A DNA stretch of 64,000 nt from Escherichia phage vB_EcoM_CRP22: sequence record OQ708377.1. One strand, 5' to 3'. The notes below the pieces were generated by a model. It was not told the DNA's origin. It did not search any database and saw nothing but the letters and a program-made list of their open reading frames with translations. The translations under genes and the position numbers were made by a program. Every line of letters begins with the position of its first letter. Positions within the stretch are counted from its first letter, which is position 1. Of the stretch, positions 11,636 to 12,570 are shown one piece after another.

Positions 11636-11712
11636 GGTTCAGTCGCAGATAAGGTAATGCAGGGGTCTCATAAGCCCTATGAATGTGGGTTCGATTCCCA
11701 TCTGAACCTCCA
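11636..11712 (+). tRNA. tRNA with anticodon CAT (Met, initiator-like, or Ile2)
   Basis: Acceptor ggttcag/ctgaacc, anticodon loop ctCATaa on a stem with three consecutive G-C pairs, T-loop ttcgatt, CCA. Confidence 0.7.
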
Positions 11713-11714
11713 AT

Positions 11715-11790
11715 GCTGTGAAAGCACATATGGATGTGCATTCGGCTGATAACCGAAAGGAAGAAGGTTCGAATCCTTCTCACAGTACCA
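11715..11790 (+). tRNA. tRNA-Ile (anticodon GAT)
   Basis: Acceptor gctgtga/tcacagt, anticodon stem ttcgg/ccgaa with loop ctGATaa, T-arm gaagg-ttcgaat-ccttc, CCA. Confidence 0.7.
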
Positions 11791-11805
11791 ATTTCAATAA
11801 AGTTG

Positions 11806-11834
11806 TTGACATTGAGATGTGACCACTTTATAGT
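11806..11834 (+). promoter_or_regulatory. sigma70-like promoter inside the tRNA array
   Basis: TTGACA - 17 nt - TATAGT, preceded by A-rich tract aaagttg. Confidence 0.5.
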
Positions 11835-12126
11835 AACTAAAATACTTCATAATATGTATAATTCAAACACCAATACATGAGTATTAGACGTAATGCAATG
11901 TGGGGAAATTTGTTGTACATATTCTGAATAGTTTTCGTTGCGTAGCGTCTATTTTGCAAATTTAAAATAAATGCAAACGACAATGTTTTTCTGGCAGTAG
12001 CTTGATAGGCTAAACACCAGTGAGGTCTTCCAATCCCTCATCAAAGAATTTGGCGTACTCGCCCACGGTATGATTAATAAGGTGGGCATCTTTAAGGGTT
12101 TTTAAGAGAGTCTTTAAAGATAATTA

Positions 12127-12208
12127 CGGGGCGTATCTCAGCTGTCTTCTAAACAGCCGTTAACCGAGTAAGTGGAGTATGCGGGTTCGAGTCCTGCCGC
12201 CTCGACCA
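12127..12208 (+). tRNA. Atypical tRNA-like gene, possibly Arg (anticodon TCT); D-arm not resolvable
   Basis: Acceptor cggggcg/cgcctcg, T-arm gcggg-ttcgagt-cctgc, CCA; clean stem gctgt/acagc with loop ctTCTaa but no canonical D-arm by eye. Confidence 0.4.
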
Positions 12209-12222
12209 ATTTTGGAGAAATC

Positions 12223-12570
12223 ATGAAAACTTGTATTAGGTGCAAACTTAGCAAGGATGAAAATGATTTCTACATGAAAGATGGTAGAAGAACTCATTCA
12301 TACTGTAAAAAGTGTGTTAATGAGCAAACCATAGAAAGACAAAGAGCACTTAAACTCTCAGCTATTGAGTACAAAGGTGGTGTTTGTCAGGATTGTGGTA
12401 AAAGGTATCATCCAGCAGTGTATGACTTCCATCATTTGAATCCTTCAGAGAAAGATTTTAACATTGCTCATAGAAGAAGTCTTAAGTTCTCTCAGGAGCT
12501 TAAGAACGAACTTGACAAATGTGTTTTGCTATGTTCAAATTGCCATAGGGTAAGACATGCAAAGTATTAG
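12223..12570 (+). CDS. HNH endonuclease (free-standing, inside tRNA array)
   Basis: 115 aa from internal ATG (MKTCIRCK...); CxxC pairs and FHHLNP...LLCSNCHRVRH HNH motif; the track start at 12172 overlaps the preceding tRNA-like gene. Confidence 0.7.
   Translation: MKTCIRCKLSKDENDFYMKDGRRTHSYCKKCVNEQTIERQRALKLSAIEYKGGVCQDCGKRYHPAVYDFHHLNPSEKDFNIAHRRSLKFSQELKNELDKCVLLCSNCHRVRHAKY

Follow-up and report, generated by a model that had tools for sequence, protein, structure and literature searches.

Here we report an RNA gene in a stretch of 64,000 nucleotides (nt) from Escherichia phage vB_EcoM_CRP22 (sequence record OQ708377.1), a segment of a Felixounavirus (Felix O1-like myovirus) genome that is referred to as the window throughout. 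As judged by comparative sequence analysis, the interval 11835-12126 inside the tRNA array of this phage is a conserved structured non-coding RNA gene with its own near-consensus promoter. Transfer-messenger RNA (tmRNA) and SmpB form the main system for ribosome rescue and protein tagging in bacteria, which is an antibiotic target and which several phages need in order to grow. Our preferred, still tentative reading is that the ~285-nt phage RNA is derived from tmRNA, docks on the tmRNA of the host, masks its template and most likely supplies a tag template of its own. The further proposal that a chimeric two-piece tmRNA of host and phage origin adds a phage-specified tag to rescued proteins is possible, if rather doubtful.

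A structured RNA gene in the tRNA array

ARAGORN identified 25 tRNA genes between 10015 and 15245 of the window and no tmRNA gene. The interval in question is flanked by a canonical tRNA-Ile upstream (11715-11790) and by a tRNA-like element that starts at 12127. A preliminary description of this DNA had stated that no recognisable tRNA precedes 12127, and indeed neither ARAGORN nor Rfam at gathering thresholds, where tRNAs were the only hits, called a tRNA or tmRNA between 11790 and 12127. Over 11700-12300, identity to many Escherichia and Salmonella Felixounaviruses amounts to 90-98%. In GenBank, the homologous stretch of these relatives is left blank in most records and is otherwise given tiny coding sequences (CDSs) for a 'hypothetical protein'. 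The promoter TTGACA-17-TATAGT that had been proposed in front of the gap was found again as the best sigma-70 match (11/12) between 9500 and 15500, an interval in which the total count of promoter-like sites is not above chance.

The preliminary description had also claimed that the gap holds no open reading frame (ORF) over ~16 amino acids. This was wrong as to size, since there is an ORF of 21 amino acids on the plus strand and there are ORFs of 48 and 46 amino acids on the minus strand; these ORFs are, however, not conserved. Protein-coding ORFs on either strand were rejected. We give negligible weight to the idea that the region encodes small proteins (the 46-48-amino-acid ORFs on the minus strand) or is a non-functional spacer. 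Such ORFs do stand in a mechanical ORF list and JLBYU28 is annotated with three such CDSs, but in other members of the family the homologous minus-strand frame is interrupted by stops, the substitutions are compensatory for RNA stems and most records leave the region unannotated.

Compensatory changes were assessed in an alignment of 91 distinct copies for four helices, namely the outer stem of a hairpin resembling helix 5 of tmRNA, both stems of a first pseudoknot and stem 1 of a second pseudoknot (Table 1). Standard pairs account for 99.9% of 1531 cells (17 pairs, the pseudoknot stem included). Eight of the 17 pairs have changed on both sides (193 cells) and none on one side only. Pairing fell to 32-50% when the partner columns were slid, and the observed covariation was reached in 0 of 500 shuffles. 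Pair 90-113 of the helix-5-like hairpin reads G:C in 58 copies and A:U in 32, with C:G in the remaining one. The two helices of the first pseudoknot (helices 2 and 3) are 99.8% and 100% paired, with five pairs changed on both sides (for example CCGA/UCGG, CCAA/UUGG, CCAG/CUGG), and stem 1 of the second pseudoknot (helix 4) is 99.7% paired with two covarying pairs. The gcccac...gtgggc hairpin noted earlier at 12061-12087 is present and covaries across relatives. It corresponds to stem 2 of the second pseudoknot, which occurs as GCCC/GGGC, GCCCAC/GUGGGC, GACGGGAG/CUCCCGUC, CCCUGA/UCAGGG and AUCC/GGAU, and the loop UGAUUAAUAA of this pseudoknot is conserved. The suggestion that a small RNA gene lies within the tRNA cluster is thus supported by a promoter of its own, by compensatory stem changes and by conservation beyond the tRNAs. 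The core is kept in hundreds of phages of unrelated families, in prophages and in phage-plasmids, the opposite of a conservation that ends with the flanking tRNAs.

Table 1. Parts of the RNA, its promoter and its downstream neighbour (positions in the window)
Feature	Position	Strand	Basis or remark
Sigma-70 promoter TTGACA-17-TATAGT	11806..11834	+	11/12 matches
Transcription start	~11841	+	inferred
Module A, optional 5' domain: long irregular hairpin and inner hairpin with GACG loop	11841..11927	+	fold
Putative anti-tmRNA arm AUAGUUUUCGUUGCGUAGCGUCUAUUUU	11928..11955	+	predicted duplex with tmRNA nt 80-107, -24.7 kcal/mol
Predicted cis hairpin UAUUUU/AAAAUA (11950-11955 with 11964-11969)	11950..11969	+	sequence and minimum free energy fold
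Frame-setting context AUAAAU, U(-5) 11968, A(-4) 11969	11967..11972	+	sequence
Tag frame GCA AAC GAC AAU GUU UUU CUG GCA GUA GCU, then UGA UAG	11973..12008	+	ANDNVFLAVA
Helix-5-like hairpin, stop codons in loop	11991..12020	+	helix 1, 100% paired
H-type pseudoknot resembling pseudoknot 2 (PK2) of tmRNA	12021..12053	+	stem 1 12021-12025/12036-12040; stem 2 12030-12033/12050-12053
Second pseudoknot	12055..12087	+	stem 1 12055-12058/12068-12071; stem 2 GCCCAC 12061-12066/GUGGGC 12082-12087
Terminal hairpin AUCUUUAAGG...CUUUAAAGAU, variable slot	12088..12121	+	fold; longer cassette here in other relatives
Atypical tRNA-Arg(UCU)-like neighbour, outside the RNA	12127..12208	+	Rfam tRNA 31.2 bits

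Complementarity to host tmRNA and a tmRNA-like tag frame

The Rfam scan that the preliminary description had named as a check gave nothing in the gap at gathering thresholds, but it did give tmRNA-model matches below them. In a permissive scan of 11780-12240, RF00023 (standard tmRNA) aligned with 11937-12125 (15.3 bits, E 3e-4, model positions 56-295) and RF04321 (permuted tmRNA) with 11879-12005 (20.5 bits). The anchor of the two alignments is AAAAUAAAU-GCAAACGAC, and both scores are under the Rfam threshold (47 bits). With a profile of the messenger part of the family, real ssrA genes were matched at nt ~79-150, on the plus strand. No direct blastn similarity to E. coli ssrA was found at E <= 1e-5, matches being obtained only by profile or covariance model.

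The RNA contains a frame of 10 codons that starts with GCA and specifies ANDNVFLAVA, as compared with the E. coli tag ANDENYALAA. In E. coli tmRNA, A86 is essential for frame choice and nearly universal, U85 is highly conserved, and base pairing around the resume codon inactivates the molecule (PMC2481249). Yersinia- and Sodalis-type tmRNAs read AAUAAUU-GCA before and at the resume codon. An exact-pattern scan of IMG/VR gave at least 120 contigs, which together with other phage loci made up 128 copies. Among the matches listed, all 128 copies have a 10-codon ORF from GCA, and these comprise at least 17 tag variants of the form AN[DE]xxxL[AM][VA]A (for example ANDDVVLMAA, ANDNVFLAVA, ANDDLMLMAA, ANEEMYLAVA and ANDEQFLAVA). 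The first stop in frame 0 is codon 11 in 91 of 91 distinct copies, whereas its position wanders in the other two frames. Synonymous changes are frequent (GCU/GCC/GCG/GCA at codon 10, CUG/UUG at codon 7, UUU/UUC at codon 6 and GAC/GAU at codon 3, which is GAC, GAU or GAA across copies). The frame-0 stop and the synonymous variation together form the pattern that would be expected of a translated tag.

The RNA therefore has to be placed with respect to known tmRNAs. It has a resume codon with the upstream A and U and a short ORF closed by a stop, and it has a helix-5-like hairpin with the stop, followed by pseudoknots, of which there are two and not the usual three. It reaches 15.3 of the 47 bits set for RF00023. 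The tRNA-like domain (TLD) of tmRNA, with its 7-bp acceptor stem carrying G3:U70, T-arm and 3' CCA, is missing: no acceptor stem, T-arm/T-loop or CCA was detected within 11841-12126. A permuted tmRNA would have its acceptor piece upstream, where a canonical tRNA-Ile is found; the score of 20.5 versus 47 bits and the failure of ARAGORN to call a tmRNA agree with this. Because the tRNA-like domain is lacking and the model thresholds are not reached, despite the presence of the template, helix 5 and the pseudoknots, the RNA is on sequence grounds neither a tmRNA nor a permuted tmRNA.

For comparison with the 5' arm, the E. coli ssrA sequence was verified beforehand. All copies open with a conserved box, (U)AGUUUUCGU, which is exactly reverse-complementary to nt 97-106 of E. 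coli tmRNA (ACGAAAACUA, codons 3-6). In the CRP22 arm, 11929-11940 can pair with tmRNA nt 95-106 (CGACGAAAACUA), 11945-11947 with nt 89-91 (C89-G90-C91, the C-GC of the resume codon) and 11949-11955 with nt 81-87 (AAAAUAG, U85 and A86 among them). The target is a single-stranded stretch of tmRNA that holds U85/A86, the resume codon and codons 2-6. While the duplex of the CRP22 arm covers nt 80-107, that of other variants spans nt 68-107, and for 43 of 43 distinct arms the best duplex was located at nt 68/80-107 with -23 to -38 kcal/mol. The blocks of arm and target are collinear (UAGUUUUCGU:ACGAAAACUA, GCGACU:AGUCGC, UUGCGG:CCGCAA, UUUUU:AAAAA). The commoner arm type adds GCGACU:AGUCGC (nt 86-91), UUGCGG:CCGCAA (nt 75-80, the 3' strand of pseudoknot 1, PK1) and UUUUU:AAAAA and attains -30 to -38 kcal/mol. 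All 91 members target tmRNA nt 68/80-98/108, and the same site is targeted by members obtained independently of the search pattern (SSU5-like plasmid, lambdoid prophage, Chaseviridae and Aeromonas phage).

The reverse complement of the CRP22 arm aligns to ssrA 80-106 with a score that was reached by 6 of 2000 shuffles. In seven of nine representatives, 0-8 of 2000 shuffles equalled the score of the corresponding local alignment; the weak exceptions are L092 (27/2000) and L013. A profile of the arm matches ssrA genes at nt 108-71, on the minus strand. Among 120 sampled ssrA genes, the host target, GUAAAAAGCCGCAAAAAAAUAGUC-GCAAACGACGAAAACUAC, hardly varies within Enterobacterales (Erwinia, Serratia, Citrobacter and Enterobacter included), and hence the arm does not vary; such variants as do occur are mostly wobble-compatible with the fixed target, as is the case for GCGGCU, GUGGCU and GCGAUU (from GCGACU) with AGUCGC. 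The arm box is invariant while codons 4-6 of the RNA itself vary freely, so that the arm is not tracking its own template. On average, pairing with host tmRNA gains 12.2 kcal/mol over pairing with the downstream sequence of the same member. The arm as a purely intramolecular partner of its own tag region was rejected on account of this difference of ~12 kcal/mol and of a fixed arm facing variable codons 4-6. Module A and the 3' half of the RNA were considered as further antisense or homologous segments of ssrA and were likewise discarded, as they gave no signal above shuffles. Taken together, the RNA combines a promoter of its own with complementarity, across all variants, to a defined host RNA, as expected of an antisense RNA.

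Given these findings, we propose the following sequence of events. The arm would dock on the single-stranded nt 80-107 of host tmRNA and bury U85/A86, the resume codon and the tag template. Docking would open the predicted cis hairpin, which overlaps the 3' part of the arm and covers the U(-5) and A(-4) of the phage RNA; it is a possible switch, and its opening would expose the resume context of the phage. Since the arm is antiparallel to its target, the phage template would leave the duplex at the PK1-proximal end, which is where the host template normally starts. The TLD of the host, together with SmpB, could then bring in a hybrid two-piece tmRNA, and translation would resume on the frame of the phage. 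Rescued proteins would be tagged with AANDNVFLAVA (...LMAA in other phages) in place of AANDENYALAA; at the minimum, tagging by the host would be blocked. The phage tags retain AAND...F/Y and often end in -AVA, and from the recognition properties of ClpX and SspB we would speculate that the degradation of tagged proteins might change.

The two halves of this proposal need not stand together. If the RNA were a pure inhibitor or decoy, its pairing would shut off trans-translation and tagging, perhaps triggering cleavage, the body would titrate S1, SmpB or RNase R and the frame would remain untranslated. An arm that covers U85/A86 and the resume codon, where structure inactivates tmRNA (PMC2481249), fits this possibility, as does the lack of a tRNA-like domain, and a TLD-only fragment of phage DS6A is thought to inhibit tmRNA (PMC4131195). 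We nevertheless regard inhibition without tagging as unlikely, because it accounts for the arm only and docking with template supply for arm and frame. It leaves unexplained the 10-codon frame of the 128 listed copies, the stop at codon 11, the AN[DE]...[VA]A form, the synonymous changes and A(-4)/U(-5).

Several points weigh against docking and template supply. Z-scores of RNAduplex, which is a permissive program, were only -1.8 to -5.1 relative to dinucleotide shuffles. For the CRP22 arm z was -2.7 and one shuffle scored better. The L013 variant class retains only an 11-nt block. The invariance of the host target makes host-specific covariation between arm and target uninformative, and because the copies are related, their sharing of one target site is partly inheritance. 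The tmRNA of Salmonella, which we take to encode ANDETYALAA, would present one seed mismatch to Salmonella phages. In CRP22 (by module A) and in Kuttervirus, an upstream hairpin may bury part of the arm seed. As to the frame, the scan pattern fixes ATAAATGCAAAYGA and GGTCTTCC, which renders those positions invariant by construction. The coding test is not clean because the frame partly overlaps helix 5, and some of the 'synonymous' variation may be structural. A partner of 200-290 nt may be too bulky to pass the ribosome alongside tmRNA. Finally, we found no expression, interaction or tagging data for these phages in the literature.

Some of the same observations could be explained by a structured RNA of another function, such as an anti-defence RNA or a scaffold on which the tRNA array is processed, with the tmRNA traits as leftovers of a captured ssrA fragment. 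The homology to tmRNA is short and statistically weak, the duplex z-scores are moderate, and elsewhere the element is surrounded by modular cassettes of unknown function, all of which would be in line with this. We give it little credence, since frame, stop and A(-4) have been kept in diverged copies and since the arm matches the host better than its own sequence in at least five phage families as well as in phage-plasmids.

Distribution, transcript ends and genomic neighbours

Distant blastn comparisons showed that the core, ~11964-12088, recurs in unrelated phages and that the region is a mosaic. The 627 phage records with a match include Felixounavirus relatives, Kolesnikvirus (Erwinia), Kuttervirus/Ackermannviridae including CBA120, Schitoviridae (TR2, Pollock), Chaseviridae and Klebsiella phages of 46-49 kb. 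The element is also present in 329 of 5426 complete E. coli genomes, where it resides on 105-125-kb plasmids and in lambdoid prophages, in the latter between the Q antiterminator and the lysis genes. These E. coli copies are never annotated, and nowhere is a family member annotated as RNA. An SSU5-like variant occurs on 754 plasmids from Klebsiella, Escherichia, Enterobacter, Salmonella, Yersinia and Citrobacter. Most of them are non-mobilizable phage-plasmids of ~100-125 kb, examples being NZ_CP151620.1 (Y. pestis, 100.9 kb) and CP003223.1 (K. pneumoniae HS11286). In the one context examined, pRM9975-1, the tag is ANEEVYLAVA and the element lies just upstream of a small tRNA array. Members retrieved by blastn only (SSU5-like plasmid, lambdoid prophage, flopper, phiA050) have an unchanged architecture and a different sequence; the tag of Chaseviridae phage flopper and of Aeromonas phage phiA050 is ANDSEMRVAA. 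The element was always located within tRNA-array-like, translation-related regions.

Of 78 distinct upstream contexts, 29 have a TTGACA-17-TAnnnT promoter whose end lies 7-13 nt in front of the UUUUCG box, which makes the arm the 5' end of the primary transcript. In many Felixounaviruses the promoter found in the window directly abuts the arm and module A is absent. In CRP22, Felix O1 and some others, the 87 nt of module A are inserted between promoter and arm. This module recurs in Chaseviridae (flopper, PYps3T) directly upstream of the arm and tag module, its stems covary (GUAUUA/UAAUGC versus GCCUUC/GAAGGC), and so it counts as an optional part of the RNA. Neither significant similarity nor significant complementarity links it to ssrA. 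In prophages, what precedes the arm is the 3' strand of a long-stem cassette. The RNA of TR2-like phages is a stand-alone unit with an intrinsic terminator. No such terminator was found in the window before the tRNA-like gene, and the 3' end of the CRP22 RNA is probably made by an RNase P cut at 12126/12127.

The downstream neighbour is tRNA-like, as had been proposed, although it is missed by ARAGORN and exceeds the Rfam threshold of 29 bits only slightly. Its acceptor stem is CGGGGCG/CGCCUCG with G3:U70, A73 and CCA, for which reason it was first considered as an alanine-accepting domain. Homologues with 85-88% identity are present in the unrelated phages 121Q (annotated there as tRNA-Leu), phi92, Sugarland and Kamaji. 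The neighbour has a covarying acceptor stem, anticodon arm and T-arm, with five different anticodon stems around a CUUCUAA loop (UCU, Arg) that is invariant. Across the homologues, position 3:70 reads G:U, G:U, G:C, G:U and U:G. The D-arm is replaced by an invariant UAUCUCA and a 23-nt segment, CGUUAAYCGAGUAAnUGGAGUAU, which follows the anticodon arm and is invariant as well. Other Felixounaviruses have a canonical tRNA-Arg(UCU) in this slot. The neighbour is not a tmRNA domain but, by its sequence features, probably an atypical tRNA without a normal D-arm. A complete standard or permuted tmRNA extending over 11841-12208 was rejected, because the neighbour is closed in itself, its anticodon arm covaries, its G3:U70 is not conserved and ARAGORN calls no tmRNA.

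These properties also bear on the idea that the RNA is the coding piece of a genuine two-piece tmRNA of the phage, whose acceptor would be a neighbouring tRNA-like or T-arm module encoded by the phage itself. Natural two-piece tmRNAs exist (PMC11915505), and in prophages, Kuttervirus, TR2 and phiEa21-4 the element has T-arm cassettes or tRNA-like elements beside it. We consider this very unlikely. The only neighbour in the window is the tRNA-Arg(UCU)-like gene with its covarying anticodon arm and non-conserved G3:U70, and inspection of the sequences revealed no complementarity between it and the RNA. The candidate in phiEa21-4 is recognised by neither Rfam nor ARAGORN, the RNA of TR2-like phages stands alone with its terminator, and the match of the arm to host tmRNA would be left unexplained.

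A number of further elements were seen around the family. In lambdoid prophages and 46-49-kb Klebsiella/E. coli phages, cassette arrays surround it (IMG/VR loci L129:2380-2900, L005:1330-1560, L077, L088, L105 and L109). Their cassettes consist of a long stem, ACAACAGGUAAGAGCAUUG...CAGUGCUCUUUCCGUUGUGG, around a variable insert that often has a T-arm-like GGUUCGAnUCC hairpin beside the 3' strand; the combination of long stem and tRNA-like cassettes recalls bacterial Y RNAs. A conserved loop motif, CCCUUAUGGGGCUUGGCUUAAAUGCA, occurs in Felix O1 (L001:1885-1960) and, upstream of the arm, in the prophage-like L105 and L109, with closing stems that differ wholly and covary. In Felix O1 this motif element takes the slot of the terminal hairpin (12088-12121), and the motif is absent from the window.

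Downstream of the copy in Kuttervirus sal1 (L004:1330-1650) there are several tRNA-like elements that have T-arms and acceptor-like stems of unusual length, ~14 bp (for example CAUCUUAGAGGACA...UGUCCUCUAAGAUG), and ARAGORN calls none of these elements. Upstream of it, a perfect 24-bp hairpin pairs the arm seed with the host-target-like GAACGAAAACCUG; it may serve as an RNase III site or may mask the seed. In the Erwinia phage phiEa21-4 (L006:990-1180), ~190 nt separate a tRNA-Arg from the promoter of the element. This stretch starts with UGGGUGAUUCUG, which resembles the tmRNA 5' end GGGGCUGAUUCUG, and ends with the T-arm-like GGUUCGAAUCC followed by AAUCACUC-G-CCA, which is able to pair with its 5' end; it could be a degenerate tRNA-like domain.

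Directly after the tRNA-like gene of the window, an ORF for an HNH homing endonuclease is located at 12224-12570, the presence of which varies among relatives. Many genomes match only to ~12212, as is typical of mobile-endonuclease traffic in a tRNA array. The preliminary description had further regarded TTAAGRG as a conserved spacer motif of the tRNAs, for which we obtained no support. With 51 copies it exceeds the ~24 that shuffles predict (a count of 51 was reached by 0 of 100 shuffles), but the copies are spread over both strands of the whole 64 kb and not concentrated in the tRNA array; there, the only plus-strand copies are those at 12092 and 12102, both inside the terminal hairpin of the RNA.

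Significance and relation to known systems

In the literature on tmRNA and Felixounavirus, phage tmRNA-like RNAs, tag peptides, antisense regulation of tmRNA, prophage small RNAs (sRNAs) and phage transcriptomes, we did not find a description of the element. If the proposed docking is correct, it would be, as far as we found, the first natural antisense regulator of tmRNA, and if the tag frame is used, the first case of a virus that re-codes the degradation tag of its host through a hybrid two-piece tmRNA. A takeover of ribosome rescue would then extend over Felixounavirus, Kuttervirus, Chaseviridae, Schitoviridae, Klebsiella siphophages, lambdoid prophages and SSU5/pMT1-type phage-plasmids, and it would account for an 'empty' gap that is seen again and again in tRNA clusters of phages for therapy and biocontrol (Felix O1, Kuttervirus). 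The element is also carried by Y. pestis pMT1-type and K. pneumoniae pKPHS2-type phage-plasmids. It would provide a testable handle on the stake of phages in trans-translation. Derivatives without the tRNA-like domain escape the tmRNA finders now in use.

With standard tmRNA (SsrA, RF00023) the RNA shares the GCA resume codon after U(-5)A(-4), a 10-codon tag that begins with AND and has a small hydrophobic end, tandem stops in a helix-5-like loop with H-type pseudoknots behind it, and sequence matches that are weak but consistent in position. Unlike standard tmRNA, it has no acceptor stem, T-arm or CCA, so that it cannot be charged or enter the ribosome alone. It also has no recognisable PK1 or P2 and only two small pseudoknots, it carries an arm antisense to tmRNA, it scores far below the Rfam threshold and it is negative with ARAGORN. 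Natural two-piece tmRNAs, in which a coding RNA is base-paired to a separate acceptor RNA, are found in Alpha- and Betaproteobacteria and in cyanobacteria (RF04321 and related models) and likewise have a coding RNA in need of a paired acceptor (PMC11915505). Their two pieces come from one permuted gene and are joined via the acceptor and P2 helices. The partner proposed here is, in contrast, a complete host tmRNA contacted via its messenger region, and there is no permuted gene order.

Among phage-borne tmRNA derivatives, complete tmRNAs are encoded by cluster C mycobacteriophages and Bacillus phage G, and mycobacteriophage DS6A has a TLD-only fragment thought to inhibit trans-translation of its host (PMC4131195, PMC11915505). 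The RNAs of all these phages and the family described here have this origin in common. DS6A keeps the tRNA half, whereas the present family, in Enterobacterales hosts, keeps the messenger half and adds an antisense arm. Judged from its sequence, the family is the reciprocal of DS6A, TLD-less and equipped with an anti-tmRNA arm.

The T4 small stable RNAs (species 1 and 2), to which the RNA had been likened by description only, are also products of a non-tRNA gene in a phage tRNA array and are probably also freed by tRNA-processing enzymes. Nothing is known to tie them to tmRNA, and the analogy is too generic. The Pas sRNAs of prophages were set aside as different, being restricted to Escherichia/Shigella and described in a paper that does not mention tmRNA.

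AgvB and AsxR are anti-sRNAs of phages and prophages that neutralise small RNAs of the host. Like them, the RNA has its own promoter and a long 5'-proximal complementarity to an abundant host RNA. It differs in that its apparent target is tmRNA and not an Hfq-dependent sRNA, in its tmRNA-mimic body with a conserved frame and in the lack of an intrinsic terminator in the window. By its sequence the RNA comes closest to a tmRNA coding piece to which a trans-acting antisense RNA has been fused. The family thus unites a tmRNA derivative and a phage antisense RNA, both of known kinds, and it is the exchange of the tag that would be categorically new.

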